Source: a virus
Length of the DNA stretch: 64,000 bases
Reading direction: 5' to 3' (one strand)
IMG/VR virus record: IMGVR_UViG_3300045971_000409
Location: 1-64,000 of that record
In this document: in pieces, positions 29,561-62,304 of the stretch
How positions within the stretch are numbered: position 1 is the stretch's first letter
How the letters are laid out: each line of letters starts with the position of its first letter
Translations under genes and position numbers: made by a program
Notes under the pieces: model-generated
What the model was told of the DNA's origin: nothing
Databases searched by the model: none
Seen by the model: the letters and a program-made list of their open reading frames with translations, nothing else

Positions 29561-29593
29561 ATAACCATCACACACCCTACATGGAGGTATATT

Positions 29594-30841
29594 ATGGATT
29601 TAAAGTTGGCCATTAATGCCCGTATCCCGCTTATATCGGTGGAAACCACGGACACCATCAACATCCTGGAGGTACTGACCCACTACGCAGGTATGCCCAT
29701 CACAGAATACCCACTGAAAGGAGAAATTATGGCGGGAAACCTACTCGCCATAACCAAGAAGGAGGGAAATAAGATAGGGTCTATATTCTACTCCTACAAC
29801 CCCATCTCGGGGGCCATCCCCAAACTGTACACTCGCCTGTCTGAATATGCCCAGAGTATTATTTTCATCAATGTTGAGGATCAGGAGGGCAGTTTTGCAG
29901 TCGGCATGGTGTTTCCCGACTATGACCTCGTGAAGTCCAATTTGGCCCCGCATCTACCCGCCACTCAAGTTGAAGAATTTACCCCCTACCTAGTGGGGCA
30001 CACTCTCAAGGAGATAACGGAAATTATCCGTATCCTCATGGAGATAAAAGGTACCAATGCCACACTGACTGATCTGCTTGCCGTCAAGAAAATGCTCTCT
30101 CCCCCCGTGAGAGGGGCCACAATGGTTAATACTACTCTCCCATACAACCACCCCAATACGGCACTGGAATTGTGGCTCCAAACTGATGGTCCTATATTCC
30201 TACACTGTAGAGAGACTCGTCTGCGGCCGCGTGGATTATTATTTTACGGCACTCCAGGGACGGGTAAGACTCAGGGGGCCAAGTACCTGGCCACCCAACT
30301 GGGCCTGCCACTCTACGCCCTAGAGGTGGGAGACTCCCTGGGAAAGTATGTTGGTGAATCAGAGGGTATGTTTGCAAAGGCTCTTCGGCATATCGACGCA
30401 GAGGAACCCTGTGTGGTCCTGCTGGATGAGGTAGAAAAGATATTCAAAGTGGGGGATGATTCCACCGGGGCAGTACAGCGCATCCTCTCCCGTCTACTCT
30501 GGTGGCTGCAAGAGAGAACGTCCAAGACTCTGGTAATCATGACTACCAACCTCTTGGAGGCCCTGCCCACTGAGCTATATCGCCCCGGTCGTATTGATTA
30601 CACCATGCGTTTCGAGGGTCTGCATTTACCAGAAGGGCTAGATTTAGTAACTGGATTGATTAATTCGTTCCCACATTTGGGAGAATTGGTACCATCCTTG
30701 CATAACTTTACGATAAATGTTCATGGTCATGTGACGCAGTTTCTTTACAAATCGGGAGGCAGAGCCACTCCGTCGGACATAACGCAACTGGTTTTCAAGT
30801 ACATCAAACTAGAGTACCTGAAAGCTATACCAAAAGAATAG
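29594..30841 (+). CDS. AAA+ ATPase
   Basis: Walker A GTPGTGKT, 'GKYVGESE', Walker B VVLLDEVEK, SRH 'TTN..LPTELYRPGRID'. Confidence 0.9.
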   Translation: MDLKLAINARIPLISVETTDTINILEVLTHYAGMPITEYPLKGEIMAGNLLAITKKEGNKIGSIFYSYNPISGAIPKLYTRLSEYAQSIIFINVEDQEGSFAVGMVFPDYDLVKSNLAPHLPATQVEEFTPYLVGHTLKEITEIIRILMEIKGTNATLTDLLAVKKMLSPPVRGATMVNTTLPYNHPNTALELWLQTDGPIFLHCRETRLRPRGLLFYGTPGTGKTQGAKYLATQLGLPLYALEVGDSLGKYVGESEGMFAKALRHIDAEEPCVVLLDEVEKIFKVGDDSTGAVQRILSRLLWWLQERTSKTLVIMTTNLLEALPTELYRPGRIDYTMRFEGLHLPEGLDLVTGLINSFPHLGELVPSLHNFTINVHGHVTQFLYKSGGRATPSDITQLVFKYIKLEYLKAIPKE

Positions 30842-30879
30842 TCAATAATTACAGTAGGTTATATACCTAAAGAATAATC

Positions 30880-30908
30880 TTGACAAAACTTTCTACTTAT
30901 TATATACT
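30880..30908 (+). promoter_or_regulatory. Sigma70-like promoter
   Basis: TTGACA-17-TATACT. Confidence 0.85.
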
Positions 30909-30967
30909 CTTTCTATCAATTCAACCAACCGGTAACCCCAACCGGCAACCACGCAAGGAGGCAACAA

Positions 30968-31684
30968 ATGGAAGACGAAGATTTGAGCTACGGAACCAAG
31001 GAGACCGAGGTAGACAACCCCAACATCATCCCCGTGGAGAGCAAGGACCTGACCATCGCGGGCAACGCGGACTGTCTGCCCCAGGCCGTCATGTTCAACA
31101 ACACCAAGGGCAATCGGGAACAGTTGGCCGTACCTGCCGACTTCCCCTACCCAGCGCTGTTCATCAACGGTACCTACGAGCCCCAGAGTTATCTGGTACT
31201 GGGTGACATTGCCAACCGAGCGTTTCGAGTTGCGATCCGTCCCCTGTACTCGTACTACCAGTCAGAATTCCGGGTCCGTATCGTGCCTATCTACGAGGGT
31301 GCGGACGTTTTGAATGTCCCGGAAGAATTCCCTCGGCTGCCTTTTGTGGGCAAGAAATCCAGTCATGTGCGTATCTCCAAAGTATTCACCGATGAGGTCG
31401 ATACTAAGGGGGTTCGTAAGGATGAAAGTATGGAGCGCACCTTGACTCGATTCTTCTCCGACTCCCACATAGCCACCATCGAAAAGCTCTACTCCTGCTT
31501 CGGTAACACCGAATGGATAGTACCTCTGGATGGTCTGTACGCCTACCTCCAGACTTATGTGGCTCAGAATTGCGTGGACCATTTCAAACAGAGTCACGCG
31601 GGGAAAAACGATGAAACCCCGATGGTCTCCGATGAACCTGAATTTGCGGATAATGGACAAGGGCCTGATGACGATGAGTACTAA
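30968..31684 (+). CDS. Hypothetical protein
   Basis: AAGGAGG RBS; ORF track. Confidence 0.7.
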   Translation: MEDEDLSYGTKETEVDNPNIIPVESKDLTIAGNADCLPQAVMFNNTKGNREQLAVPADFPYPALFINGTYEPQSYLVLGDIANRAFRVAIRPLYSYYQSEFRVRIVPIYEGADVLNVPEEFPRLPFVGKKSSHVRISKVFTDEVDTKGVRKDESMERTLTRFFSDSHIATIEKLYSCFGNTEWIVPLDGLYAYLQTYVAQNCVDHFKQSHAGKNDETPMVSDEPEFADNGQGPDDDEY

Positions 31685-32210
31685 AACCAACCGCCTGGTA
31701 GGCACTGATGGAGCCCCGGACTACCTCATTATCCATGCGTGTAATGGGCTGGCCCTGGGCGTGAAACCCCTCCTGCTCCCCGTGGTAGGAGATGAACAGG
31801 CAAAAGTACTAGGGATACGGGTTCGCGTAGCCCGAGACCCCAACAGTGCTATCGCCGTCACCAATGTCCAAGCCTGCGCGGCCATAAACTACGAGATAGG
31901 ATTCTCCAAGCGCGATGCCAATCGGTGCAGTCTCAATCTCACCGCCATGATTCCTGATCTGAGTATGGCCACGCTGGAAGACTTCAAGACTCAAGTAGTA
32001 GCCGGTATTCAGGGGGCCATAACCAAGACCCTGGCCAGTTACATAGAGAGTCCTGGAGCCACCGTGGGACTGGATGAAATACAGAAATTTGTTGAAGAGA
32101 CTCTGTGTGCCGAGTTCCTGAGTGTCTACCCGGACCACAAACCCCAAGCCAAAGAAGCCATTACTGGTAAGGAGGGCAAGGTAATACAGGTCAACTTCGG
32201 CAAGAAATAA
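31674..32210 (+). CDS. Hypothetical protein
   Basis: Overlaps the upstream stop; start chosen at 'MSTKTN'. Confidence 0.6.
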   Translation: MSTKTNRLVGTDGAPDYLIIHACNGLALGVKPLLLPVVGDEQAKVLGIRVRVARDPNSAIAVTNVQACAAINYEIGFSKRDANRCSLNLTAMIPDLSMATLEDFKTQVVAGIQGAITKTLASYIESPGATVGLDEIQKFVEETLCAEFLSVYPDHKPQAKEAITGKEGKVIQVNFGKK

Positions 32211-32280
32211 TCACCGACCCATTGTGATTTTACCCCCCCCCTGGCCCATGTCAGGGGGGCATTTCCGTAAGGAGATTTTT

Positions 32281-32535
32281 ATGGCTCACGATATACACCA
32301 CCAGATAACTGCAATGACCGGGCTCACAGTTTACGAAAAATTAGTACTCTGGTCCCTGGCGGACCACTACAACAAGAAGACAAAAAAATGCTGTCCCTCG
32401 TGGGAAACAATCATAGCTGAAACAAGTACGAGTAGTTCATCAGTACACAGAGCTATGGTATCGTTAAAGAAAAAAGGATTGATAGAATCCCTACGGAGTA
32501 AAAATGCAGCACAGTATAACCTTCTCTTTATCTGA
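32281..32535 (+). CDS. Small winged-HTH protein (paralogue of the initiator N-terminus)
   Basis: TAAGGAG RBS; 'EKLVLWSLADHYN....CCPSWETI..ETSTSSSSVHRAM..L..KGLI'. Confidence 0.8.
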   Translation: MAHDIHHQITAMTGLTVYEKLVLWSLADHYNKKTKKCCPSWETIIAETSTSSSSVHRAMVSLKKKGLIESLRSKNAAQYNLLFI

Positions 32536-32564
32536 CACCTCGTAACCACAGTGAGGGACTTTTT

Positions 32565-33599
32565 ATGGCTTTTGACCACCACAAGCAGATACAAAAACTG
32601 GTAGAACTCAGCAGTAAGGAAAGCCTAGTTTTGAGAGTACTGGCCGACCACGCTAACCATCACACAAAAAAATGCTGCCCCACATGGGAAACCATAACCA
32701 GAGAAAGTGGATTAAGTAGGGCCTCGGTGCATAGGGCTTTGGTTCTTTTGCGAGATAAAGGATACGTGACCCCCACCAAATCAGACCGCAAAGTCCAATA
32801 CAATCTGGAACTGACAAACCCAAAACCACCCCAAGTAGCCATCGAATTGAAAGTAGCAGCAGTAGAGCAACGTCTCATCGGGGGAGTTTCCAAGGGCGCA
32901 GTCACGTCTCAGCTTGAGACCTGTCGCGTCTCACCGGGGGAGTTACCTATACTTAACCTAAAAGATAATAAAAAAGAAATTCTTGGCAAACAAGTTTGCA
33001 GTTCGCAAGCTCACAAAAAATCAGAGGAGAAAATTATGAAATTTCCAGAAGGTACTTCATCCTCTGATGTATTAGGGCTAGTAGAAAAATTGAAAAACCA
33101 GAAGAAAAAGAAAACCAGTCAAGTGGGAGAAATACACACCCCCCTGAATTTTTCTCTGGCCAAGGCAGATTTACTTTGGCGGAATCATATTCCGAAAATC
33201 TATCCGCAGATAACCATGGTCTGCCTGACGGTGAAACAAAAGGGGCAACTCAAGTATCTGTTGACTCTGTTCACTCAAGGGCATTTGGAGGAGGACTATG
33301 CCCTCACCACGATAATCGAAAAATGGGTGGAGTTTTGTATCTACCTCAAGGGGCACTTCAACGTGTTCTATTCTCCCGCCCTACCTGACATGGGATTCCT
33401 GTTGAAGAATGGGGCCAATGCTGTCAACTTCATAATTCAGTACCAAAATGCCACCGTAGCTCCAGTGCAATTAATTGCACAAAAACCATTCAAGGTTACT
33501 ATGAAGGAAATCATACCCATAACATTGCCACCCGCAGAAGATTCTGTTACTCTGGAAGATATCTTTAAGTGGGAGAAACTGCAAAGTAAGGCGGGCTAG
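32565..33599 (+). CDS. Putative replication initiator (N-terminal wHTH)
   Basis: 'LVLRVLADHAN....CCPTWETI.RESGLSRASVHRAL..L.DKGYV'; followed by DnaC-like and DnaB genes. Confidence 0.75.
   Translation: MAFDHHKQIQKLVELSSKESLVLRVLADHANHHTKKCCPTWETITRESGLSRASVHRALVLLRDKGYVTPTKSDRKVQYNLELTNPKPPQVAIELKVAAVEQRLIGGVSKGAVTSQLETCRVSPGELPILNLKDNKKEILGKQVCSSQAHKKSEEKIMKFPEGTSSSDVLGLVEKLKNQKKKKTSQVGEIHTPLNFSLAKADLLWRNHIPKIYPQITMVCLTVKQKGQLKYLLTLFTQGHLEEDYALTTIIEKWVEFCIYLKGHFNVFYSPALPDMGFLLKNGANAVNFIIQYQNATVAPVQLIAQKPFKVTMKEIIPITLPPAEDSVTLEDIFKWEKLQSKAG
32871..32983. repeat. Iteron-like repeats plus an A-rich tract (putative origin)
   Basis: CGTCTCAYCGGGGGAGTT at 32871 and 32927; CGTCTCAGCTTGAGAC at 32905; AT-rich run follows. 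Confidence 0.55.
33466..33480 (+). repeat. Dispersed motif, copy 6 (in the initiator gene)
   Basis: gTGCAATTAATTGCAC. Confidence 0.9.
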
Positions 33600-36518: not shown

Positions 36519-36533
36519 TGCAATTAATTGCAC
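36519..36533 (+). repeat. Dispersed motif, copy 7 (intergenic)
   Basis: TGCAATTAATTGCAC. Confidence 0.9.
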
Positions 36534-36553
36534 AAGAACTACACGGAGGTACC

Positions 36554-36868
36554 ATGGGCAGCCCAAGACCCCAAGGAAATCGGGACTATAAGACCCGAGT
36601 AGTTTACACTGACCAGCCGCGCTACTGTGCTTACACCAAATGTGGACTTTTGCTCGTTCAGCGGGAAGGGGAAAACCCCTCTCGATTTTACGGCCGAGAG
36701 ACCTGTAACCGGGTGTGCGGGCATGGTTTATCCGCGGAAAGAAAAGCAGAAGCCATGCACATCCAAAACACACCCACACCCCGAGCAGAAGTCTTATCCC
36801 TGGAATCGGCACCACAACACGTTCAAGATGCCATAGCGCGTAGACGTCAACAAGGAGCCCTTCGGTAA
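36554..36868 (+). CDS. Hypothetical Zn-binding protein
   Basis: GGAGGT RBS; 'CAYTKC...CNRVC'. Confidence 0.65.
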   Translation: MGSPRPQGNRDYKTRVVYTDQPRYCAYTKCGLLLVQREGENPSRFYGRETCNRVCGHGLSAERKAEAMHIQNTPTPRAEVLSLESAPQHVQDAIARRRQQGALR

Positions 36869-37830
36869 TGTTACTCCCGGCAGTAGAGCATCTGCTCTCT
36901 ATCCTCGGGGTTAAGGACCACGGCTTACGTCCTGGCTGGGTGACCTTCTCGTGTCCGTTTGCCTTCTGGACTCACGCGGGCAGTACGGATAGTAGTCCTT
37001 CCTTCGGCATATCCTTTGAGGCCAACAGTCGAGCACACTGTTTCTCGTGCCCCGAGACTGGCAGTGCCTTGGGTATGGTCATGCGTTTGGTTGAGTGGCA
37101 GAAGAAACAGCCCAATCCGCGGTATACCAATGAGCAACTCAAAGAGGCGGTAGAATTCGTGTCCCAAGAGGAGCCGGAGGATTCTACCTCTGAATTCGAT
37201 TTCCCGTCCTTCGATTCTCTGCAAGAAATCAATACGGTCAAACCGTTGATACCCTTCCCCGAGGATTGGCTATCATCCTTCCTCTCAGGAGCTAATCATG
37301 TCTATCGAGTCAGTAGAGGCATCTCCCTGGAAACTGCCTACCGTTTCGATATCAGGTATGACACCCTACTCAAGCGACTATGCTTCCCCCTCCGCAGTAT
37401 TACCGGAACCCTCTATGGGATGCAGGGCCGTGATGTTACTGGAAAACAGCAACCCAAGTACCATTTTTACGATTACAAGGGCATCAAGAATCCTGTGGTG
37501 TGGGGTAACGAGCAGCACGTAGACCTGTCAGAGCCACTCATCATCACCGAGGGTTTCCCGGACGCGGCCAAGATAGATACGGCTGGTTTCCGTAACGTGG
37601 TGGCCTGTCTCACGTCTAAATTCAGTCGTCACAAATACGAGCGACTCCAAGATGCCAAGAATATCATTACCTTCTTCGATTATGGTACCGGTGGGGACAC
37701 AGGCAGACTCCTGGTGGAACGCTATTGGAAGCACGCCCACGTCATGCACGTTATACCCGACGAGGAAGAAAAAGACGCGGGCAACATGAGCGTAGAAGCA
37801 ATACAGGAGGTACTACATGGACTCGTCTGA
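36868..37830 (+). CDS. DNA primase (Zn finger + TOPRIM)
   Basis: 'CPF..H...SPSF...CFSC'; TOPRIM 'IITEGFPDA', 'FFDYGTGG', 'KDAG'. Confidence 0.88.
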   Translation: MLLPAVEHLLSILGVKDHGLRPGWVTFSCPFAFWTHAGSTDSSPSFGISFEANSRAHCFSCPETGSALGMVMRLVEWQKKQPNPRYTNEQLKEAVEFVSQEEPEDSTSEFDFPSFDSLQEINTVKPLIPFPEDWLSSFLSGANHVYRVSRGISLETAYRFDIRYDTLLKRLCFPLRSITGTLYGMQGRDVTGKQQPKYHFYDYKGIKNPVVWGNEQHVDLSEPLIITEGFPDAAKIDTAGFRNVVACLTSKFSRHKYERLQDAKNIITFFDYGTGGDTGRLLVERYWKHAHVMHVIPDEEEKDAGNMSVEAIQEVLHGLV

Positions 37831-38122
37831 TTGGATACCTGTTACCCAGAAATTCCCCGAGAGTGGTAAAAAAGTAATCGCCTATTACGAAAATGAACTA
37901 GGGAAGCCTCGTCGTATCATGGCGTACTACGCGGCCAAGTACGATGTAGAATCTGACATGGGGGACCAAACCGACGTATACGAGTATTGCGAAGAAAAAG
38001 ACCTGTATTTTTTGGTTCCTGGGTGGTACGAGAATAACGAGTTCGATGAGGTAAATTACGCGGTCACAGCGGAGATAACTCACTGGATGAGTCTACCCCC
38101 ACCGCCCAAAAAAAGAACCTAA
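37817..38122 (+). CDS. DUF551-like phage protein
   Basis: 'WIPVTQKFPE'...'ITHWMSLPPPP'. Confidence 0.8.
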   Translation: MDSSDWIPVTQKFPESGKKVIAYYENELGKPRRIMAYYAAKYDVESDMGDQTDVYEYCEEKDLYFLVPGWYENNEFDEVNYAVTAEITHWMSLPPPPKKRT

Positions 38123-39002: not shown

Positions 39003-39085
39003 CCGACAAGGCGGGTCTGCTTTTGCAGCCCCCATAGAAGGGGACTTGGCCCCTTGCCCGCCTCGTTGTATTACATGGAGGTACC

Positions 39086-39307
39086 ATGCTCAACGATACT
39101 TGCGTGCTTTACAAGGTAGGAGATACCCCCTACGTGGGACCGGATGCAGACTCAGGACCGGGCTACCCTATTGGAACTCAGGTGCGGATTATAGAAGTGT
39201 ATCCCGAGGATAACCACTATCAGGTAGAGCCGGTTGACCCCGAGCTTCACCGACTGTACCGACACTGGTACTATGCAGATTATGAACTGCGTACGGAGAT
39301 ACCATGA
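39086..39307 (+). CDS. Hypothetical protein (SH3-like?)
   Basis: GGAGGT RBS; 'YKVGD...GTQVRIIEV...YQVE'. Confidence 0.6.
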   Translation: MLNDTCVLYKVGDTPYVGPDADSGPGYPIGTQVRIIEVYPEDNHYQVEPVDPELHRLYRHWYYADYELRTEIP

Positions 39308-39564
39308 TAGAGATTGATCTAAGCAGCGTAGATAAGCCCATCATCAAGGTAGAAGGGGTTGAAGTACAAGATATATGTACTTCTCTCAATCTATCCGTAG
39401 ACGCAAAGACTTTAATGCCTACTGTAAAATTGCAATTAATTGCACCGACCATGAGCCCTATTCATGTAGACCGGTATCAAATTATTTTTGATTTGTCGGG
39501 TACCAGTTTGCAGGTAGCAAAAGCACTTAATACCGCCGTTCGAGAGAGGCTAGGACTTAGTTGA
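39304..39564 (+). CDS. Hypothetical protein
   Basis: ATGA coupling; GGAG RBS. Confidence 0.55.
   Translation: MIEIDLSSVDKPIIKVEGVEVQDICTSLNLSVDAKTLMPTVKLQLIAPTMSPIHVDRYQIIFDLSGTSLQVAKALNTAVRERLGLS
39431..39445 (+). repeat. Dispersed motif, copy 8 (intragenic)
   Basis: TGCAATTAATTGCAC. Confidence 0.9.
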
Positions 39565-40078: not shown

Positions 40079-42339
40079 GGCAACCACTCATGACCGCTGC
40101 GGCGGCAATCTACCCTTACAAGACGGGCATGGAGAAGAAGTACACCCATGTGTCCCGCTACGGTGACCCCTTCGTCACTTACAAGTTGTCGGGGTACGGG
40201 GGCAACGCCTCCATCCACCTGCCACGGGCCATTTGTCCTATCGGCAAACTGGATAAGCGAGTAGTGGGGATACCGGTGTCCTTCCCCAAGGCCAACTTCA
40301 TTCCCCGTAATGAGGACCAGTCTGAGGCCGTAGATTACTGCTCCCAACTGCTACAAGGGGACGAGTCACACATCCTGGAAGCCCCCACGGGATGTCTTGT
40401 GGGTAGTACCGAGATAATTGTAAACAGGGCGGGGAAATCCGTAAGGACTACTCTGGAAGAAGCCTACCGCCACACGCACCCACCAACACCTGTACCTGAG
40501 GGCTATTGTTTTTGTGGGTGCGGAGGAAAGACAACAGTACCCGAGAGAACTAGAAGTCCAAAACGTCCCAAGGGAGTACCCTCTAAGTTTTTATTCAAGC
40601 ATGAGGGTAGAGTTCGTCAATGGAAAAACAGCATGCAGGTACGGTCTTTTTTAGGTACCCATATAGGGCTAAACAAGGCTAATGCGGTAGTACAATCGGG
40701 GGTGAAAGAGGTATACCGCCTTACTCTAGGGGATTGTAATTTTTTGGTGGGAACTAAAGACCACCCCATAATGACTACAGAAGGTTTCGTGCCTCTGGGG
40801 GACCTAACCCCTGACCACATGGTTATGTGTGATCGAGTACGCCCCACAAAGCAGGTAACTAAGGCCCCCAAAGTACGAGACAAGTATATCAATAACATGT
40901 GGAAGCACCCGTTTGCTGTACGCATAAGGACCACAAAAGAGGCCCGAGGGTACACCCGCAGAGTAGCCCTGCACGTAGCGATATTTGAGGCCAGGACCAA
41001 TAAATTGTCACTGGATGATTACATCACCGTATGCAGACTAGGTAAGACGTCCAATCTTGATTTGGTAGACCCTTCGATTTACGTGATACACCATAAGGAT
41101 GGTAACCACAGCAACAATAGTATTGATAATTTGCAAAAGATGTTGAGGGAAGACCACTACAGCCACCATGCTTCACCGCAGAATTTTGGAAATATGGTAC
41201 CTTATTACGTTCCTGTGGAGTCAGTTGTGTATGTGGGTGAGGAAATGACCTACGACATACAGTGCGAGGCCCCTCACCACAATTTTGTAGCCAATGGTAT
41301 TGTAGTACACAATTCCGGCAAGACTTTCATGGGTATGGCCATTGCCGCCAACATGGGGCTCTGTACCCTAGTCGTGGTACCCAAGACTGACCTCGTGGAC
41401 CAGTGGATAGTGGCAGCCAAAGGAGTGCTAGGACTCACCGATTCAGAGATAGGCATTGTCAAAGGGGACAAGTGTTCCTATGAGGGCAAGAAGCTGGTCA
41501 TTGGGTTGGTACACTCTCTGTGCAAAGAGGGTCGTTATCCAGACGCGCTCTACCGTCAATTCGGCCTCATCATCTTCGATGAAGTACACGTTATGGGAGC
41601 AGAAACCTTCTCCGAATTGGTCTGGCTATTCCCTGCCAAGTACCGACTGGGACTGTCGGCTACCCCCTACCGTAAAGATGGACGAGAGAGGCTGTTTACG
41701 GACCACATCGGGCAAGTCCTAGTGCGTATCGAGGGTAATGAATTACCCTTCCGTATTTTCCGCAAAGAGACCGGCTGGAAAGTACCCCGAGTCAAAAAGA
41801 AAAATCCCCAGACGGGAGCCTACGATATCATTCAACTGCCCCACAGTGCTGGAAAGCTCATGCACATTTTCAAGCTCATGGCAGGCAACGAGAAACGTAA
41901 TTCGATCATTGGGGACTTCGTGGCCAAGGCTTATACCGCAGGGAGAAACATTCTGGTAGTATCGGACCTCAAGGAAGATCACCTGGACCGACTCTACGCC
42001 CTCTTCGCCAAGCTCGGAGTGGCTCGTAAGGACATGGGCTACTACGTGGGCACCATGTCTAAGAAAGACTTGGAGATTTCCAAAGCCAAGCAGGTAATAC
42101 TGGCTACGTACGGGATGATTAACTTCGGGACCAATATCCCGTGGCTAGATACTCTAGTAATGGCTACCCCCAGGTCGGACGTAGTACAAATCGTGGGACG
42201 TATTCTGCGGGAATATCCTGACAAATCGGTACCCATAGTCTTCGACCCGGTAGATAGTGATAGTTCAGTAATGGCCAGTTATGCGGCCACTAGAAGAAAA
42301 TGGTACCTCAGCAAAGAAACCACGATAGAAGAGCATTGA
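40072..42339 (+). CDS. SF2 DEAD/DEAH-like helicase containing an intein
   Basis: Split Walker A APTG|SGKT, 'IIFDEVH', 'GLSATP', 'QIVGRILR'. Confidence 0.92.
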   Translation: MLGQPLMTAAAAIYPYKTGMEKKYTHVSRYGDPFVTYKLSGYGGNASIHLPRAICPIGKLDKRVVGIPVSFPKANFIPRNEDQSEAVDYCSQLLQGDESHILEAPTGCLVGSTEIIVNRAGKSVRTTLEEAYRHTHPPTPVPEGYCFCGCGGKTTVPERTRSPKRPKGVPSKFLFKHEGRVRQWKNSMQVRSFLGTHIGLNKANAVVQSGVKEVYRLTLGDCNFLVGTKDHPIMTTEGFVPLGDLTPDHMVMCDRVRPTKQVTKAPKVRDKYINNMWKHPFAVRIRTTKEARGYTRRVALHVAIFEARTNKLSLDDYITVCRLGKTSNLDLVDPSIYVIHHKDGNHSNNSIDNLQKMLREDHYSHHASPQNFGNMVPYYVPVESVVYVGEEMTYDIQCEAPHHNFVANGIVVHNSGKTFMGMAIAANMGLCTLVVVPKTDLVDQWIVAAKGVLGLTDSEIGIVKGDKCSYEGKKLVIGLVHSLCKEGRYPDALYRQFGLIIFDEVHVMGAETFSELVWLFPAKYRLGLSATPYRKDGRERLFTDHIGQVLVRIEGNELPFRIFRKETGWKVPRVKKKNPQTGAYDIIQLPHSAGKLMHIFKLMAGNEKRNSIIGDFVAKAYTAGRNILVVSDLKEDHLDRLYALFAKLGVARKDMGYYVGTMSKKDLEISKAKQVILATYGMINFGTNIPWLDTLVMATPRSDVVQIVGRILREYPDKSVPIVFDPVDSDSSVMASYAATRRKWYLSKETTIEEH
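40393..41313 (+). mobile_element. Intein (307 aa) with an HNH homing endonuclease
   Basis: Begins CLVGST; block B 'GTKDHP'; ends 'TYDIQC..HHNFVANGIVVHN' with +1 Ser; HNH 'IHHKDGNHSNNSIDNL'. Confidence 0.93.
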
Positions 42340-42364
42340 CAAAACTGTCAACACTAGGTACACT
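42336..42364 (+). promoter_or_regulatory. Sigma70-like promoter with an inverted repeat over the -35
   Basis: TTGACA-17-TACACT; TTGACA-aaac-TGTCAA. Confidence 0.75.
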
Positions 42365-42392
42365 CCGGGTATCTATTTTCAAGGAGGACAAT

Positions 42393-43393: not shown

Positions 43394-43408
43394 TGCAATT
43401 AATTGCAC
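43394..43408 (+). repeat. Dispersed motif, copy 9 (upstream of recA)
   Basis: TGCAATTAATTGCAC. Confidence 0.9.
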
Positions 43409-45818: not shown

Positions 45819-45850
45819 CATACTATACACACACTACAAGGAGGTACCTA

Positions 45851-48069: not shown

Positions 48070-48086
48070 AAGGAATATCCTATACT
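48058..48086 (+). promoter_or_regulatory. Sigma70-like promoter (TTGC class)
   Basis: TTGCAA-17-TATACT, continuing TACACTATA. Confidence 0.75.
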
Positions 48087-48133
48087 TACACTATAAACAT
48101 TCACCAGCGACACTACACGGAGGTAATTGACTA

Positions 48134-50266
48134 ATGCAACCCAAGAAGCTGTACAGTACTATTACCGAAGGCGATCTTTTCGAGACCATGAATCTCGGAG
48201 AGGCCAAAGAGTTATTGGGGGGCAAGGCTTCCGGCCTGTTCGTCATGACTCAACTCGGTATCCCTGTACCCCCCGCAATGACTATCCCAACCGTAGAATG
48301 TATCAAGTTCTTATCTGAGGCAAAGGAAGAGTCAGTACAGACCAGACTCAATTTTCTGGTAGATGAAGTCCTCACCGCGATAAAGACCGATATCGTTCCG
48401 CAGTTCGGATACACCCCGTTGTTCTCCGTTCGTTCCGGGGCTCGGGTGTCAATGCCAGGTATGATGGATACCATTCTCAACGTGGGACTGACCCCGGATA
48501 CCTTGGAAGAGTGGTTTCCGCGTATCGGGGAGTGGGCCTCCTGGGATAGCTACCGTCGCCTCATTCAGATGATGGCTTCTGTGGCCCTTGAAGTTCCGAT
48601 GTCTCAGTTTGAAGAGGCCCTCACGGACGCGAAAAAAGAAGAGAATGTGACTGAGGATACCGCCCTTTCAGTATCCGCCCTTCGCAAACTGGTTATCCGT
48701 TACAAGAAACTGGTCAAGGCCCATACCGGTAACGATTTCCCCACCACCCTTCGGGGGCAGTTATTGCTGGCCATCAAGTCGGTATTTCAATCGTGGGACA
48801 ACCCCCGCGCCCATACGTACCGCGCATTGAACAATATCCCCTACGATTGGGGCACCGCGGTAACAGTACAAGCCATGGTCTTCGGAAATCGTAACGAGCA
48901 GTCTTGCTCTGGTGTTCTCTTCACCCGAGACCCATCCACCGGGGATGATAATCTGGTAGGGGAGTTCCTACCTAACGCCCAGGGTGAGGACGTTGTTGCG
49001 GGAATCAGAACCCCTCTGCCCTTTGACGAACTGGAAAAATGGAACCCCAAGGTATGTTCTGACTTGAAGGCCGTCGCTGTTCGACTGGAAGATCACTACC
49101 GGGACATGCAAGACATAGAGTTCACGGTAGAGAATGGAAAGTTATATATCCTCCAGACCCGTAATGCCAAGCGATCACCAGAAGCAGCTCTCAGGGTAGC
49201 GGTAGACATGTACCACGATGAGCTGATTACTCTGTCTGATGTATCTCGAAGGCTCACCCCGGAATTGCTCTTGGGGTCCGACCACGTCAGTATCGACCCG
49301 GCTTATACGGGAAAACCTGCGGGGGTGGGCATCCCTGGGGGTGGTACCATCGTCAGTGGTGTCGCGGTATATACCTCTGAGGAAGCTATCGCCTGCAAAG
49401 AGCCCTGCATCCTGGTCTCCAAGGAAACTACCCCCGATGATATTGGGGGGATGCACGCCGCAGTGGGTATTCTCACCGCAACTGGGGGCTTAACTTCTCA
49501 CGCGGCCGTGGTGGCTCGGGGTATGGGTAAAACCTGCGTCGTCGGTTGTGGGGACCTGGGTAAAATCGGCTTTGTGTGGAAACTGGGAGAGACCCTGCTC
49601 CCCAAGAATGAATGGCTAACCATCAACGGTCTCACGGGGGAAGTATGGAAGGGGAAGGTACCACTGGTGACCAAGGGCATCAGTCCTGCGGCCCAGCAGA
49701 TAATAAGTATTCTGACCAAGGGTTATTCTCCGTTACTACTGGATGGGACCTTCGACTCACGCTTACGACTACCTTCGGTATGTGTGACCCCCGCCATAAC
49801 GAGTACCAACCTGAGACACGCGGCCCTACAGCATGATACAGTAGTTATCAATGGTACCGCCACAGTGAAACAACTGCATGTCGAAGACGATAAAGTACTC
49901 TCTGAATTGTTTAGTATTGATATCGCGGCCAGGGCTGAATATCAGGCTATAGGGGCAAAATTGAAGCAACTGCACACTTTAACTGCCCCAGACGTGGCAA
50001 TTTATGTTACAGTACCCCCCGACTCAGGCATTAATGTCAAGGATATGCCCAAGTTTAAAACGGTGCCTTCCGCCAATACGATAACCGATATCCTGAACTC
50101 GTCGGGATTGGTTGAATTACCCGCGGACACCTGTAAGACTTTATTCGAGGACCAGACGGGATTGCAATTGTTCCTAGATATGGCTGAAATGGCTGGCCGT
50201 AAGTTTAATATCCTACCCCCGGCTCAAACGTACACCGAGTTTATCCACCGCGTTTTGGGAGAGTAA
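48134..50266 (+). CDS. PPDK-like dikinase (ATP-grasp + phospho-His swivel domain; no pyruvate-binding barrel)
   Basis: 'LLGGKA', 'SVRSGARVSMPGMMDTILN', 'QGEDVVAGIRTP', 'QDIEFTVE...LQTR', 'GGLTSHAAVVARG'; unrelated ~200-aa C-terminus. Confidence 0.88.
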   Translation: MQPKKLYSTITEGDLFETMNLGEAKELLGGKASGLFVMTQLGIPVPPAMTIPTVECIKFLSEAKEESVQTRLNFLVDEVLTAIKTDIVPQFGYTPLFSVRSGARVSMPGMMDTILNVGLTPDTLEEWFPRIGEWASWDSYRRLIQMMASVALEVPMSQFEEALTDAKKEENVTEDTALSVSALRKLVIRYKKLVKAHTGNDFPTTLRGQLLLAIKSVFQSWDNPRAHTYRALNNIPYDWGTAVTVQAMVFGNRNEQSCSGVLFTRDPSTGDDNLVGEFLPNAQGEDVVAGIRTPLPFDELEKWNPKVCSDLKAVAVRLEDHYRDMQDIEFTVENGKLYILQTRNAKRSPEAALRVAVDMYHDELITLSDVSRRLTPELLLGSDHVSIDPAYTGKPAGVGIPGGGTIVSGVAVYTSEEAIACKEPCILVSKETTPDDIGGMHAAVGILTATGGLTSHAAVVARGMGKTCVVGCGDLGKIGFVWKLGETLLPKNEWLTINGLTGEVWKGKVPLVTKGISPAAQQIISILTKGYSPLLLDGTFDSRLRLPSVCVTPAITSTNLRHAALQHDTVVINGTATVKQLHVEDDKVLSELFSIDIAARAEYQAIGAKLKQLHTLTAPDVAIYVTVPPDSGINVKDMPKFKTVPSANTITDILNSSGLVELPADTCKTLFEDQTGLQLFLDMAEMAGRKFNILPPAQTYTEFIHRVLGE

Positions 50267-50267
50267 T

Positions 50268-50582: not shown

Positions 50583-51015
50583 TGCTTTACGACAAGCCGA
50601 AGAGTTATTCGGGGTCCTCAGTTTAGAGGACTTGCAGCACAAAATGGAGTTCTCAGCCCGAGTAACCCACGCCCACGGCAACCGACGCTTTCACAACTAC
50701 GTCTTCAATTTAGTAGGGGATGATTTAGTGACAGGAATCTACAGGTATATCGCGGGTGTGCATAAAAAGCAGGAAGGATGCCCTGTATGTGGGGGCTCCA
50801 AAAAATTGATTGTTTATGATGTGTGCGACTGTGTCTACAACCCACCACAAGGAGAATGTAAACTATGCAAGGGAATGAAGGAAGTAAAAACGGAACATAC
50901 CTGCACCTATTGCGGGTCGGATTCAAAGCCTTCAAGGATGGACTGCGCGAGGCCAAGAGAAGCTACTACGCGGGACAAGTTGAGAGCGTTCCAGCAGAGT
51001 TACAACCGGCGGTAA
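50548..51015 (+). CDS. Hypothetical protein with a DnaJ-like CxxCxG Zn finger
   Basis: CPVCGG, CKLCKG, CTYCG. Confidence 0.6.
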   Translation: MDRRQNYRFTNSALRQAEELFGVLSLEDLQHKMEFSARVTHAHGNRRFHNYVFNLVGDDLVTGIYRYIAGVHKKQEGCPVCGGSKKLIVYDVCDCVYNPPQGECKLCKGMKEVKTEHTCTYCGSDSKPSRMDCARPREATTRDKLRAFQQSYNRR

Positions 51016-51527
51016 GCAACGCGGACCTTAAGGCTATCCAGCGCAAGGCTCTGCTACACACCCTGGTCAAAGGTACTATGGATTTTCAGTTGGGTTCCAT
51101 CAAAGGTACGATATACGGGGGCCCTTATCGTAGCAAGCCTTCTGATATTATTCACGGGGTCAACATGGCCAAGGAAATCAAGGCTCACGCCACTATCTAT
51201 GTGCCTACCGTGGATTTTAGTATCCCCGACTCGAATACCTTTCTGCTTGGCCTCATTCGTGGGGTGTTGGTTCTCAGGGAGCACGGGGAGATTTACGTGG
51301 GCTGTATGGGTGGTATCGGGCGCACCGGACTCTATCTCGGGGGCCTTGCCAAGATTATGTACTTGGCGGGAGAACTGGACGTAACCCCGGACGGACAACT
51401 CGCCCCCTATGTGAAGTACGTACGGGATAATTATTATGGCCACGCCATAGAAACTATTGAACAACTGGATTTCCTGGCCCGGTTGGATGTGAGTGGTATC
51501 ACCAAAGAATTACACTCCATAGCCTAG
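50865..51527 (+). CDS. Cys-based (PTP/dual-specificity) phosphatase (true start may be 51078)
   Basis: CX5R loop 'YVGCMGGIGRTG', 'VDFSIP', 'AIETIEQ'. Confidence 0.85.
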   Translation: MQGNEGSKNGTYLHLLRVGFKAFKDGLREAKRSYYAGQVESVPAELQPAVSNADLKAIQRKALLHTLVKGTMDFQLGSIKGTIYGGPYRSKPSDIIHGVNMAKEIKAHATIYVPTVDFSIPDSNTFLLGLIRGVLVLREHGEIYVGCMGGIGRTGLYLGGLAKIMYLAGELDVTPDGQLAPYVKYVRDNYYGHAIETIEQLDFLARLDVSGITKELHSIA

Positions 51528-51545
51528 CTATCCTACAAGAATTTC

Positions 51546-51574
51546 TTGCAAAATCACGTGGGAATCTATATACT
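51546..51574 (+). promoter_or_regulatory. Sigma70-like promoter (TTGC class)
   Basis: TTGCAA-17-TATACT, continuing TACACTATA. Confidence 0.75.
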
Positions 51575-51618
51575 TACACTATATAAATTCCCACGTGGTA
51601 CTTACAGGGAGGTAAACG

Positions 51619-52659
51619 ATGAACGTGTATCAGTACAATCAGCGGGCGTTAAAGAAGAATTTGAACTTCGGAGGAACGCCCGCCGAGCATTTAGCCACAG
51701 CCTTCAAGAACCGGCAGTACCATAACTCTATGCACCACACCAAGCAAACCCCCGAAGTGGATGCCCTGAATTTTTATCTGGGCAACCACATTTACGCGGT
51801 ACTAGCTGGTAGCCGTGACCTTTATGCCCCCCTGACCCAAGAAGAGCGTTACTTAGCCGATACGTACTTCACAATGACCCTGCCAATGGTTCATCGGGCC
51901 TTTTCGTATTTGTTCCTTATCTGCATGCGGGAAGCGCGTCACGTCAAAATATCGGACGGGACGTGGTGGCCTAAAATGCAGGCCAAGTTTACCCCGGCAG
52001 TAGTGCAATTCATGCAGAAGATTCAGCCTATGAGTAATGGGGTACACGTAGTATCTGCTTTTGTGAGTACGCCCCCGGAACACGTAAGTATCGGGGAACT
52101 CACCGAGGCGTTCATGTTCACTTACAAGAATGGCAAGTTTTCCCCCTCGTACGGAGGGCCCAAGTGGGGAGTAATTGCCGAAGTGTTGCACAATTACACC
52201 GTGGGTATCACGTCAGCGGAGATAATGCTTGATATAGTGTGGTCTCTGGCCCACAATACCGCGTCCATCTTCAATAAGGGGGTAGTATACGAGGGTAGTG
52301 GTGGGACCTTAGGCAGCATCCTGGATATTCAGCGGGCAGGACAGATACCACAGTTATTGAGCGAGCTACAGAAGCTAGGCCCCAACTACCTCAGCCTACC
52401 TGGGTCGTGGACCACCCAAGTACAAATGTCCCTGCTTACCGCGGCTCGCAAGCTATACCCGGAACTTGGTAGCTTGGTAAATTGGCCAGCAGTGGGTAAA
52501 TCTGCTATTGGAGGAGTGGCTTGGGTCAACTACAAACAAAAGCAAGAACAACATTACGGTGCGACTTCGGTTATTAACGCATCCAATGGAAGTAATGTCT
52601 TCTACGTGTCGAGTAAGGAGCAGTACAAAATCCTGACTCGGGCGCAACTCGCAGCATAG
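51619..52659 (+). CDS. Hypothetical protein, possibly an enzyme
   Basis: Own promoter and RBS; motif-like segments 'ICMREARH', 'SYGGPKW', 'LAHNTASIFNKG'. Confidence 0.75.
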   Translation: MNVYQYNQRALKKNLNFGGTPAEHLATAFKNRQYHNSMHHTKQTPEVDALNFYLGNHIYAVLAGSRDLYAPLTQEERYLADTYFTMTLPMVHRAFSYLFLICMREARHVKISDGTWWPKMQAKFTPAVVQFMQKIQPMSNGVHVVSAFVSTPPEHVSIGELTEAFMFTYKNGKFSPSYGGPKWGVIAEVLHNYTVGITSAEIMLDIVWSLAHNTASIFNKGVVYEGSGGTLGSILDIQRAGQIPQLLSELQKLGPNYLSLPGSWTTQVQMSLLTAARKLYPELGSLVNWPAVGKSAIGGVAWVNYKQKQEQHYGATSVINASNGSNVFYVSSKEQYKILTRAQLAA

Positions 52660-52679
52660 CCCCTTACATGGAGGTAACA

Positions 52680-53513
52680 ATGGGAAAGCCCACAGTAAAA
52701 TGTAATCTAAAATTGGAGTTCAAGGTGCAAGACGAAGACCGGGATGATGTGATAGTAACTCCCTTATCGGCCACGGGAGCACCCCTTGAGTCGTATGTAA
52801 CTACCGGTAAAATGGCCCCTGCCAGTCAGCGATCTAACGTAGTGCCCTTCACCCCCAAAGGGGCATCGACTAAATCGACACAGCCAAAGTGCCACCATTC
52901 GCATCCGGGGTTACCCATCCTTTGTTCTGATGGGATAACTCGTTTGGTGTATGGGGGCTCGTGCCTTGACCCTGTAATCAAAGACATGGATATATTCATT
53001 GGCTTAGATGGCGGGATGCAACACACAAAGAGACGTTATCCGTGGGAACCGGGCCTGGAGTATCTCTTCCCTATCCCTGACATGGGCGTACCTCCCGACC
53101 TGAGCTTGTTCAAGTCCCTGATTCAATATCTGTCTGAGCAGATTATGCTGGACAAAAAGATATTTATTGGGTGTATCGGTGGGCATGGCCGAACAGGATT
53201 AGTTCTATCGGTTCTTGTGCAATCAATTGCACAGGAAGCTGATGCGGTAACTTATGTGCGGGAGCATTATTGTAAAAAGGTAGTCGAGTCCTCCGTGCAA
53301 GTTGAGTGGCTAAACAAGAACTTTGGGATAACCAAAGTATCAGCGTCTAAGACAGGCCACACCGCAGCATCCCTATCCGCAACCGTCGGCTATAAGTCCT
53401 CGCTAGAGAGCTACAGTTCGTCGGCCTATCTGCCCAGCAACAATTCACCCAAGAAAGAAGTCCATCCCGTGTCTAGCAAGGGGTGTATATGGACGGGTAA
53501 TACACTGAAATAA
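52680..53513 (+). CDS. Cys-based (PTP/dual-specificity) phosphatase
   Basis: 'IPDMGVP', CX5R 'FIGCIGGHGRTG', 'VVESSVQ'; GGAGGT RBS before ATG 52680. Confidence 0.88.
   Translation: MGKPTVKCNLKLEFKVQDEDRDDVIVTPLSATGAPLESYVTTGKMAPASQRSNVVPFTPKGASTKSTQPKCHHSHPGLPILCSDGITRLVYGGSCLDPVIKDMDIFIGLDGGMQHTKRRYPWEPGLEYLFPIPDMGVPPDLSLFKSLIQYLSEQIMLDKKIFIGCIGGHGRTGLVLSVLVQSIAQEADAVTYVREHYCKKVVESSVQVEWLNKNFGITKVSASKTGHTAASLSATVGYKSSLESYSSSAYLPSNNSPKKEVHPVSSKGCIWTGNTLK
53218..53232 (+). repeat. Dispersed motif, copy 11 (in a phosphatase gene)
   Basis: tgTGCAATCAATTGCACa. Confidence 0.9.
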
Positions 53514-53514
53514 C

Positions 53515-53543
53515 TTTACTTTCACCCCGGAATACTCTATAAT
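53515..53543 (+). promoter_or_regulatory. Sigma70-like promoter
   Basis: TTTACT-17-TATAAT. Confidence 0.65.
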
Positions 53544-53579
53544 CTTCTTAATACATACCACTACAAGGAGGTAATCATT

Positions 53580-54362
53580 ATGTCAGTAATTTATGGGGGT
53601 GCTTTGGATATCGGTAAAGTATTCACTGCCTTCCACTTGGAGGGGGAATACGAGGCCCTCAAGAATAATGGGGTACAGGTTAAGAGCGGGGTAAACAAGC
53701 TCTTGTTTATTAAGTACGGGTCCACCCTCAAGACCGTTACCCTACCGGGGGGCAGCATTGATCAGGCTATGAAAGGGGAACTTATGCCTCTTTCGTTTAG
53801 CCATCTCAAAGGGCAGTTGGAAACGGCTATCGAACAGGCTCTTGCTATGGCCAATACGACACCGGGGTCTACGCCATCAACCCCTAAGAAGAAATGGACT
53901 TCTTCTTACGGTGCGACCCCAAACCCCAAGCCCAATTTTACCCCGCCCCCAGGGGCTTCGGGACCCGAACCAAGCCAGTTCGCTACGCCTACGACGCTTT
54001 CGTTTGGCCATCCTTCTAAGTATGGGGAACCGGACTGTACTCTGTACAGCGCACTGGCCCTCTACCAGAAGGTACCGGGCACCACCGCAGGCAGTCTCTA
54101 CACGGTAGTAGCCATGGGACCGGGTATCAATATGGCGGCCAGGGTACAAGGGCAGAAGGTATCTATTCGGGTACAGGGGTCGAATTTCCAGCAGTACAAG
54201 CCCATGTTCCTGGCTAATGATTTCACGGTGCATGAGTCTCACGCTTCCATCCACATTGACTGTGAAACTTCGGTTCGAGTTGGGCGGGTAATAGGGGCGG
54301 TAATTATGGGGCTAGGAATCTTTCAGTCACCGTTACCTGACCTCAAAAAACTGGTAGCATAG
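53580..54362 (+). CDS. Hypothetical two-domain protein with a Pro/Thr linker
   Basis: AAGGAGGT RBS; ORF track. Confidence 0.7.
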   Translation: MSVIYGGALDIGKVFTAFHLEGEYEALKNNGVQVKSGVNKLLFIKYGSTLKTVTLPGGSIDQAMKGELMPLSFSHLKGQLETAIEQALAMANTTPGSTPSTPKKKWTSSYGATPNPKPNFTPPPGASGPEPSQFATPTTLSFGHPSKYGEPDCTLYSALALYQKVPGTTAGSLYTVVAMGPGINMAARVQGQKVSIRVQGSNFQQYKPMFLANDFTVHESHASIHIDCETSVRVGRVIGAVIMGLGIFQSPLPDLKKLVA

Positions 54363-59826: not shown

Positions 59827-59855
59827 TTGCGATTTAATCCAGTACCCTATATACT
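59827..59855 (+). promoter_or_regulatory. Sigma70-like promoter (TTGC class)
   Basis: TTGCGA-17-TATACT. Confidence 0.7.
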
Positions 59856-59901
59856 ATAACCATATCAACCACCACAACAGCACAATACAAGGAGGTACAC
59901 C

Positions 59902-61003: not shown

Positions 61004-61018
61004 TGCAATTAACTGCAC
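61004..61018 (+). repeat. Dispersed motif, copy 12 (intergenic)
   Basis: ttgTGCAATTAACTGCACaa. Confidence 0.9.
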
Positions 61019-61072: not shown

Positions 61073-61106
61073 TACACTATATCATCCACACACAAGGAGG
61101 TACCCA

Positions 61107-61388: not shown

Positions 61389-61403
61389 TTTACAAGGTTT
61401 TTC

Positions 61404-61432
61404 TTGACAAAACTACAGGTATCACATATAAT
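61404..61432 (+). promoter_or_regulatory. Consensus sigma70 promoter
   Basis: TTGACA-17-TATAAT. Confidence 0.9.
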
Positions 61433-61507
61433 CAACTCATAAATAATTCTTGCTGGCCATCCAGCGAGACCCCCCCAGGGGGGCACACTACACGGAGGTA
61501 TCACATC

Positions 61508-61942
61508 ATGGCAATCGTCAAAGGCAAAACCACCCCGGCTACGGCCACCATCGAAGTTCCCGTTCACGACACCACCCAGGTCACCGGACCTGCCGACACC
61601 CCCGAGCCCACCCCGGCTCCGGTTGAGACCCCGGCCCCTGCGGCCATCGTCGCCCCCGCTACCCCGGCTGGCCCGTCCAGCGGCGAACTGCGGACGGCCT
61701 TCATCGCTCTGGTCTTCGGGGCCAACGGCTACAAGTTCTCCCCGCCCGCCGAGCGCCCGGCCATCATGGAGCAGGCTATCGCGGCCCGCGTAGCCTACGA
61801 AGCTCACCCCCACCACCGCAAGGACATCCTGGCCAAGATGGACCGCAACCTCGCCAACATCGACCGGGGTGCCAAGTCCTACCAGGAAGCGGCCCCTGTG
61901 GTTGAGGCCACCGACCCCGAGCCCATTGCGGCCGTCGGGTAA
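61508..61942 (+). CDS. Hypothetical protein, probably highly expressed
   Basis: Consensus promoter, GGAGGT RBS, C-rich third codon positions, downstream hairpin. Confidence 0.75.
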   Translation: MAIVKGKTTPATATIEVPVHDTTQVTGPADTPEPTPAPVETPAPAAIVAPATPAGPSSGELRTAFIALVFGANGYKFSPPAERPAIMEQAIAARVAYEAHPHHRKDILAKMDRNLANIDRGAKSYQEAAPVVEATDPEPIAAVG

Positions 61943-61951
61943 CACCCCCAA

Positions 61952-61984
61952 GGGGGCTGGGCTTCGGCCTAGCCCCCCACTTCA
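61952..61984 (+). terminator. UUCG hairpin, probable terminator
   Basis: GGGGGCTGGGC-TTCG-GCCTAGCCCCC; weak T tract. Confidence 0.55.
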
Positions 61985-62002
61985 CGTTCGAGGAGAATTA
62001 TC

Positions 62003-62275
62003 GTGGCCAATCCCAATGAAAAGATGTGTGTGAAATGCCCTATGCAGGACTACTCTCTCGGTATTGAACTGGGGAAGCGTAATCCTGATGGAACCGGCCC
62101 CAAACTGCGCGGGAAGCGGTACACCAAGTACATCACGGACGCAGAGAAGTGCCCCAAGTGCGATAGTAAACTGGTACCGTGGAAGCACGCCTCACCCTAC
62201 AACCCCACGGCCCAAGAGCCCCGCCCCACGACAGCCAAAGAACCGGACGCCCTGATCGACCAACTGGTAGATTAA
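62003..62275 (+). CDS. Hypothetical Zn-ribbon protein
   Basis: GAGGAG RBS; CVKC...CPKC. Confidence 0.6.
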   Translation: MANPNEKMCVKCPMQDYSLGIELGKRNPDGTGPKLRGKRYTKYITDAEKCPKCDSKLVPWKHASPYNPTAQEPRPTTAKEPDALIDQLVD

Positions 62276-62304
62276 TCTGCCACACTACAAGGAGGTATCA
62301 CGTT

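Follow-up and report, generated by a model that had tools for sequence, protein, structure and literature searches.

Shine-Dalgarno hairpins of CsrA type and a phage-encoded CsrA-like protein: a candidate translational regulon in a pond metagenome phage

Why do scattered genes of one phage share the same twelve nucleotides (nt) at their ribosome-binding sites (RBSs), and what reads them? The question is raised by IMG/VR record IMGVR_UViG_3300045971_000409, a single contig of 77,348 bp from a pond metagenome, whose first 64 kb are the stretch of DNA analysed here (the window). A preliminary description had reported 11 genes with the exact 12-mer TAC-ANGGAG-GTA (TACANGGAGGTA) as their Shine-Dalgarno (SD) sequence, had interpreted it as a hairpin of the kind bound by CsrA and RsmE, and had pointed to a CsrA-like protein encoded at 50268-50582 (P0001). 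The data presented below indicate that the SD of operon-leading, mostly non-virion genes is placed in an A-N-G-G-A-G hexaloop on a 3-bp stem, an arrangement that apparently recurs in a broad group of 80-105-kb siphophages related to RcZahn and RHph_TM16. It is reasonably probable that the phage CsrA-like protein clamps these hairpins and represses the leading cistrons, its own operon included.

The 11 exact copies reported for the window were all recovered at their positions on the plus strand, against 0.05 expected and a maximum of 1 in dinucleotide shuffles. The whole record holds 16 copies, all of them plus-strand (the others are at genome positions 65453, 65777, 70460, 72151 and 73113). 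Each copy ends 4-11 nt 5' of an ATG that opens an open reading frame (ORF). N is A in seven copies and C, T or G in three each, in agreement with its description as free, while the TAC/GTA flanks are identical at all 16 sites. The sequences 5' of the sites differ between copies, which shows that they are not copies of one cassette. The extension to TTAC/GTAA is present at 51602 and 52664 as described, and only there, but its frequency is not above chance and a fourth pair finds no support in relatives. The sites at 30953 and 42379, proposed as compensatory, have stems of only 2 bp, and a strong TTGACA-17-TATACT/TACACT promoter precedes each of them.

A sigma70-like promoter ends 16-56 nt upstream of 7 of the 11 window sites and of 8 of the 16 genome sites. 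The motif occurs in none of the 28 tail and lysis genes (1-29.4 kb) and in 16 of 96 genes elsewhere (Fisher p = 0.02); the RBS of the portal gene lacks it too. The contrast with late RBSs is, however, confounded with position in the operon: 14 of the 16 motif genes have an upstream gap of at least 40 nt and the late region has only ~3 such genes, which makes early versus late inseparable here from operon-leading versus internal.

High-affinity Csr/Rsm sites present an ANGGAX hexaloop directly on a stem; the presence of N, not its identity, raises the affinity and two adenines stack on the C-G closing pair (Duss et al. 2014, PMC4005645). The CsrA consensus obtained by systematic evolution of ligands by exponential enrichment is RUACARGGAUGU, and the phage 12-mer UACANGGAGGUA departs from it by a single U-to-G change. 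The loop is A-N-G-G-A-G in 16/16 sites and sits directly on the 3-bp stem, which covaries at orthologous sites and is marginal in this phage (~0 kcal/mol), while GGAGG, 4-11 nt upstream of the start codons, overlaps the SD. Judged by sequence, the architecture is that of the published high-affinity CsrA/RsmE site. SD hairpins such as RsmE-hcnA (PDB 2JPP) likewise have the ANGGAX hexaloop on a stem, usually C-G closed, that overlaps the SD, and a free, looped-out N. The phage case differs in that the regulator is phage-encoded, that the candidate targets are the phage's own genes and that its leaders carry one site where CsrA leaders carry two. The leaders are poor in G (15% versus 25% in the genome as a whole), and another GGA within 40 nt is present in only 3 of the 16, as fits a reader with one site. 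A sponge small RNA was not apparent, with no Rfam family in the window and no intergenic cluster of ANGGAN hairpins seen.

Because the stem is invariant in this phage, the existence of the hairpin could be assessed only through relatives. The comparison set comprised 80 IMG/VR loci found via the dikinase gene that precedes the csrA-like gene, 3 found via the DNA polymerase, three complete relatives (G001-G003) and the cultured phage RcZahn. Their RBSs recurrently read x3-ANGGAG-y3 with complementary flanks of many kinds (among them GCC/GGC, ACC/GGT, TCC/GGA, AAC/GTT, ATC/GAT, CAC/GTG, GAC/GTC, AGC/GCT, CGC/GCG, GAA/TTC, TCA/TGA, GCA/TGC and TCG/CGA), several of which often coexist within a single genome. 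Orthologues of the AAA-ATPase, the dikinase, phrog_20946, the PTP-like phosphatase and phrog_25950 retain the hairpin despite a changed stem. The RBS of the ATPase is GCC-AAGGAG-GGC in G001 and TCA-AAGGAG-TGG in G003, that of phrog_20946 is ACC-AAGGAG-GGT in G001 and RcZahn (gp10) and TCG-AAGGAG-CGA in G003, and the phosphatase has GCC-AAGGAG-GGC in G001 and GCC-ACGGAG-GGC in G002.

For the dikinase RBS aligned across 45 phages, the covariation score was 0.513, compared to 0.174 +/- 0.034 for shuffles, none of 500 reaching the observed value, and to 0.05-0.15 for slid-partner controls. Double changes are found at all three inner pairs, with AU 12, GC 8, UA 8 and CG 3 at one position, while the fourth base pair is at chance level. 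The first loop position is A in at least 90% of the relatives' sites, GGA never varies and N is unconstrained (A 52, T 26, C 24, G 4). The alignments thus argue that the motif is a genuine RNA hairpin with a 3-bp stem, and the CsrA-type SD hairpins claimed for this phage, with an ANGGAX hexaloop on that stem, are backed by covariation at orthologous sites. They also sustain the claim that anti-SD pairing leaves the flanks unexplained, different stems coexisting within one relative and one host. The UAC/GUA stem of this phage is thermodynamically neutral (0 to +0.3 kcal/mol); the GC-rich stems of relatives (GCC/GGC) are stable, with -1.7 to -4.2 kcal/mol for the 3-bp stem alone and minimum free energies of -3.0 to -5.9. 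A stem that is conserved yet intrinsically unstable is expected of an element clamped by a protein.

The loose pattern [AT]CA.GGA.G[TA] was abandoned in favour of RBS-anchored counts, its occurrences in relatives being mostly coding sequence (e.g. ATC-ATG-GAC-GAG). In G002 (L091-L092), ten consecutive small genes on the minus strand at 39.9-45.1 kb all carry GAA-ANGGAG-TTC hairpins, and the remainder of the genome has stems of GCC/GGC type. These may be two operator classes in one phage.

The P0001 family comprises ~190 clusters at 50% identity, mostly of 85-118 amino acids (aa). Among 80 aligned members, 69 match the Pfam CsrA family PF02599 at E<=0.01 (best 5e-8), and the family profile matches solved CsrA/RsmA/RsmE PDB chains with E values of 4e-4 to 1.5e-3. 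In the profile alignment, residues 3-27 correspond to CsrA beta1-beta3 and residues 65-93 to CsrA 26-54. The family sequence MALxLG aligns with CsrA MLILTR, L3 being invariant, and A77, P78 and R85, at least 90% conserved, align with CsrA A36, P37 and R44. The RNA-binding residue signature (beta1 Leu2/Leu4, Ala36-Pro37...Arg44) is retained in the family.

The AlphaFold2 monomer of P0001 is self-contained, with nine strands and one helix (predicted local distance difference test 94, predicted template modelling score 0.82). The whole of RsmA 1vpz_A (57 residues) is matched by residues 40-96 (1.6 A, Z 5.1), and residues 1-39 contribute only beta1-beta4, a departure from the five-strand interdigitated homodimer of the CsrA family. 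Foldseek returned no PDB match at E <= 0.001, RsmF and RsmN appearing only as weak matches. A wider structure search gave as its top matches viral glycoproteins of generic beta-sandwich fold, all below Z 8, which were regarded as non-specific. Profile and model together indicate that P0001 is a true but atypical CsrA relative, and the assignment of 50268-50582 as CsrA-like is upheld by its beta1 and APR...ILR (Arg44-equivalent) signatures. The protein looks like a single-chain pseudo-dimer: one RNA site would probably be built from beta1 of the N-half and beta5/helix of the C-half, while the second would lack beta5, unlike CsrA, a symmetric homodimer with two sites. RsmN/RsmF (PDB 4KJI, 4K59) are also CsrA-fold variants with altered topology (P0001 model versus 4kji_A: Z 4.5, root-mean-square deviation 2.1 A over 50 residues), but RsmN/F remains a homodimer with an internal helix whereas P0001 is, in the model, an N-terminal beta1-beta4 half-repeat fused to a full CsrA protomer.

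With a hidden Markov model of the family, the csrA-like gene was detected in 49 of 83 loci, nearly always immediately 3' of the dikinase gene. The co-occurrence of motif and gene foreseen in the preliminary description is observed: all three flanking pairs are present in 127 of 429 (30%) GGAG-RBSs of loci with the gene (shuffle mean 29.5 +/- 5.0) versus 8 of 118 (7%) in dikinase loci without it, counts uncorrected for kinship, by which the co-occurrence is structured, as the loci with the gene may form one clade. A contig query with the dikinase returned mainly cellular PPDKs, without information on the host. In cellular loci (n=80) hairpins make up 24 of 303 (8%) GGAG-RBSs, the GC-rich ones giving 5/59. 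The loss of Arg85 did not provide a clean natural experiment within the IMG/VR loci, 44 of the 49 keeping this residue.

RcZahn, which infects Rhodobacter capsulatus, has the gene (gp7) and 24 hairpin RBSs, 22 of them outside the head/tail/lysis block and most after intergenic gaps. The protein is annotated as hypothetical in RcZahn and in RHph_TM16. The Vibrio phages SIO-2 and J26 share the dikinase-X-phosphatase-...-polymerase-portal synteny, and the SIO-2 polymerase is 42% identical to that of this phage, compared to 42.9% for RcZahn. Gene X of the Vibrio lineage, annotated 'CsrA' in one paper (PMC12038007), codes for a 160-aa protein remotely homologous to the family (hhalign probability 82%, E 1e-5). 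In J26 the APR...ILR signature has become GSQ...INT with loss of the key Arg, and the SIO-2 protein gives a marginal 13-bit match to the family model. No ANGGAG hairpins were found in SIO-2 or J26, and the two phages are a useful matched control for the link between hairpins and gene.

In the mechanism that we favour, the csrA-like protein would be co-translated with the dikinase and present one complete beta1 plus beta5/helix RNA-binding face. It would clamp the hairpins, occlude the SD and repress translation of the leading cistrons, including the csrA-like operon itself. Such repression would give the phage a translational feedback or shut-off circuit of its own, of which an early-to-late switch is one possible reading. 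We infer binding, its repressive sign and its timing from the hairpins and their covariation, the site match, the homology and fold of P0001 and the co-occurrence. Feedback through site 48114 is plausible, since the ATG of the csrA-like gene follows the dikinase stop codon by one base and the RBS of the dikinase gene is the hairpin at 48114.

Several observations weigh against this mechanism, beyond the kinship of the loci noted above. P0001 on its own scores below the 27-bit cut-off of PF02599 (19.6 bits, E 9e-4). The RBS of the csrA-like gene itself is usually not a hairpin across loci, and five loci (L003, L004, L015, L030 and L055) have an intact csrA-like gene and zero 3-bp hairpins. A strict early-only regulon would not include gp20 (head module) and gp45 (lytic transglycosylase) of RcZahn, which carry hairpins. 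Finally, the operon-leading placement of the hairpins is compatible with stand-alone initiation independent of any protein.

That last point leads to an alternative in which the hairpins are protein-independent translation elements that display the SD in a loop and insulate the first RBS from RNA structure further 5', the CsrA-like protein acting on host mRNAs or elsewhere, for example with the dikinase/phosphatase module. This explanation is unlikely, though it accounts for sites behind gaps of at least 40 nt and often directly behind promoters, for the intergenic gaps that also precede RcZahn hairpin genes, for the intrinsic stability of the relatives' GC-rich stems and for loci that have the gene and no hairpins; host manipulation is, moreover, what has been proposed for phage CsrA homologues (PMC8450108). 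It does not account for the A at loop position 1, the exact 6-nt loop on the stem or the free N, all of them features of CsrA/RsmE recognition that SD display does not need, nor for a stem that has no stability of its own in this phage. Hairpins are also rare in cellular genes, the GC-rich ones included, and in phages that have the dikinase but not the csrA-like gene; the syntenic Vibrio phages whose homologue lost the Arg have none.

A more elaborate proposal, which we hold to be distinctly unlikely, is that a monovalent single-chain CsrA with one hairpin per leader is gated by the adjacent dikinase and two PTP-like phosphatases via phosphorylation of the protein or of RNA 5' ends. If true, this would be a private, host-independent, phosphorylation-timed translational switch in a widespread phage lineage.

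Slightly less likely again is that host CsrA/RsmA reads the hairpins and the phage protein is a competitor or mimic that tunes host CsrA. The site does equal the optimum of bacterial CsrA/RsmE. However, the hairpin-rich cultured relatives infect Rhodobacter capsulatus and Rhizobium; of 151 genomes sampled from the class that includes a Hyphomicrobium metagenome-assembled genome (presumably Alphaproteobacteria), only 29 have a CsrA match, and S. meliloti is reported to have no chromosomal csrA (PMC7366521). The hairpins track the phage gene and are missing from SIO-2 and J26 although Vibrio hosts have CsrA, which is reported for example in V. cholerae and V. alginolyticus.

The T4 endoribonuclease RegB cleaves GGAG in the SD of early genes. 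The hairpin could be the target of a similar sequence- or structure-specific endoribonuclease, which would inactivate early mRNAs at GGAG, or of some other factor, and J26 annotates an RNase E/G-like gene. The possibility is nonetheless slight: no RegB-like gene was found among the proteins scanned here, and a covarying stem with an ANGGAX loop fits CsrA, of which a relative is present, much better. The idea of a mere SD consensus imposed by the host anti-SD, or of chance or recent duplication of a promoter-RBS cassette, is hardly credible and appears already contradicted: one sequence is common to all 16 copies and GGAGGT pairs with the 16S 3' end, but the canonical anti-SD pairs neither with TACA nor with the A after GGAGGT, N is free, upstream sequences differ, relatives carry many complementary stems within one genome and host, and shuffles never reach the observed covariation.

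Phage-borne CsrA homologues are not new, and manipulation of the host has been suggested as their role (Campa et al. 2021, PMC8450108; Sobrero and Valverde 2020, PMC7366521). Like these and plasmid RsmQ (PMC9928087), the pond phage is a mobile element with a CsrA-family gene. The known mobile homologues are canonical proteins of ~60-70 aa, thought to reprogramme host mRNAs such as those of cas genes, and no operator-hairpin regulon on the element's own genes has been described for them; the P0001 family, in contrast, is dikinase-linked and of ~95-105 aa. In the papers searched, phage CsrA homologues appear only as possible manipulators of their hosts, and full-text searches turned up neither a phage-internal regulon of SD hairpins nor an account of the predicted single-chain P0001 family. 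In its logic the proposed circuit resembles T4 RegA, a phage protein that represses many early mRNAs, its own included, at their RBSs. The likeness is functional only, RegA having an unrelated fold and an AU-rich linear operator instead of a GGA hairpin. If the CsrA-like protein binds, the phage would have made from the CsrA/GGA-hairpin system a global translational regulon aimed at its own operon leaders. It would also provide a natural monovalent single-chain CsrA, informative on the role of valency in Csr regulation, and a compact orthogonal repressor/operator pair. The cultured relatives RcZahn and the Rhizobium phages RHph_TM16 and RHph_Y1_11 make the system directly testable.

Table 1. 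Motif sites and neighbouring features (window coordinates unless marked as genome positions).
Feature	Position	Strand	Gene or context
SD hairpin TAC-ATGGAG-GTA	29578..29589	+	RBS of AAA-ATPase gene 29594-30841 (phrog_10401)
SD hairpin TAC-ACGGAG-GTA	36540..36551	+	RBS of 104-aa ORF 36554-36868; palindrome TGCAATTAATTGCAC precedes
SD hairpin TAC-ATGGAG-GTA	39072..39083	+	RBS of 73-aa ORF 39086-39307
SD hairpin TAC-AAGGAG-GTA	45835..45846	+	RBS of 68-aa ORF 45851-46057; 16 nt past -10 of promoter 45790-45818
SD hairpin TAC-ACGGAG-GTA	48114..48125	+	RBS of dikinase gene heading dikinase/csrA-like operon
SD hairpin TAC-AGGGAG-GTA	51603..51614	+	RBS of 346-aa phrog_20946 gene 51619-52659
SD hairpin TAC-ATGGAG-GTA	52665..52676	+	RBS of PTP-like phosphatase gene 52680-53513
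SD hairpin TAC-AAGGAG-GTA	53562..53573	+	RBS of 260-aa ORF 53580-54362
SD hairpin TAC-AAGGAG-GTA	59886..59897	+	RBS of small ORF at 59902
SD hairpin TAC-ACGGAG-GTA	61489..61500	+	RBS of 144-aa ORF 61508-61942; behind consensus promoter 61404-61432
SD hairpin TAC-AAGGAG-GTA	62286..62297	+	RBS of 170-aa ORF 62305-62817
2-bp variant GC-AAGGAG-GC	30953..30962	+	RBS of 30968-31684; behind promoter 30880-30908
2-bp variant TC-AAGGAG-GA	42379..42388	+	RBS of 42393-42839; behind promoter 42336-42364
Short-loop variant TAC-AGGAG-GTA (no N)	37802..37812	+	RBS of 37817-38122
Short-loop variant TAC-GGGAG-GTA	63243..63253	+	RBS of 63260-63520
PPDK-like dikinase	48134..50266	+	PPDK_N and PEP-utilizers mobile domain; PEP/pyruvate barrel not found (Pfam)
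Predicted single-chain CsrA-like protein P0001, 104 aa	50268..50582	+	
Sigma70-like promoter TTGACA-17-TATACT	29532..29560	+	Directly 5' of motif site
Promoter	45790-45818		Directly 5' of motif site
Promoter	48058-48086		Directly 5' of motif site
Promoter	51546-51574		Directly 5' of motif site
Promoter	53515-53543		Directly 5' of motif site
Promoter	59827-59855		Directly 5' of motif site
Promoter	61404-61432		Directly 5' of motif site
Near-palindrome TGCAATYAAYTGCAC	1876-1890, 3302-3316, 9812-9826, 20724-20738, 29418-29432, 33466-33480, 36519-36533, 39431-39445, 43394-43408, 47229-47243, 53218-53232, 61004-61018		
GC-rich stem-loops	61465-61488, 39040-39071; genome 70440-70459, 72130-72150, 73090-73112		

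All genes of the record are on the plus strand. The first 29.4 kb code for a lambda-like tail module and lysis genes (tape measure, minor tail proteins, a 3216-aa central fibre, endolysin), followed from 29.5 to 59 kb by replication, recombination and nucleotide genes, the dikinase/phosphatase module, the DNA polymerase and the portal, and from 59 to 77 kb by numerous small genes that have no assigned function. Judged by the DNA polymerase, at 42-45% identity, the nearest cultured relatives are Vibrio SIO-2-like and Stenotrophomonas DLP_5-like phages, Rhodobacter phage RcZahn and Rhizobium phage RHph_TM16. Neither megablast nor blastn found nucleotide relatives in the phage collection, and a metagenome scan with an alignment of P0001 and its closest homologue, P0002, confirmed zero loci. 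Among sequencing runs, only two sets of pond-metagenome DNA, and no RNA set, were found to contain the phage. The 3216-aa ORF (10525-20175) matches lambda-J-like central tail fibre/host-specificity families and has a length unusual for a siphophage; the thought of an N4-like phage that it had prompted was given up on this assignment. The PHROG scans of the larger ORFs (contig 1-77348) recognised the portal and tail genes but no major capsid protein or large terminase, and the contig starts within an open reading frame. Either part of the genome may be missing from the record or the head genes may have diverged beyond recognition.

The module at 48134-54362 codes for the PPDK-like dikinase, the CsrA-like protein, a PTP-like phosphatase, the 346-aa phrog_20946 protein, a second PTP-like phosphatase and a 260-aa ORF. 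The dikinase combines an ATP-grasp domain with a swivel His domain. The gene order is the same in RcZahn, SIO-2 and J26, where the products are annotated as kinase, thymidylate synthase or pyruvate decarboxylase, and the conserved succession of dikinase, CsrA-like and phosphatase genes hints at a regulatory module yet to be explored.

Two further elements are found near RBSs. The near-palindrome TGCAATYAAYTGCAC occurs 12 times in the window (0.01 expected) and again at genome position ~65760, before the hairpin at 65777. Some copies are intragenic and at least three lie directly 5' of an RBS (3302, 36519 and 43394); TTGCAATTA-like sequences precede some J26 genes. The near-palindrome may serve as an operator or as a promoter element peculiar to the phage. 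GC-rich stem-loops (e.g. CCCCCCC-A-GGGGGG, no T-run) stand immediately 5' of several hairpin RBSs and may serve as processing, stabilising or attenuation elements at operon starts.

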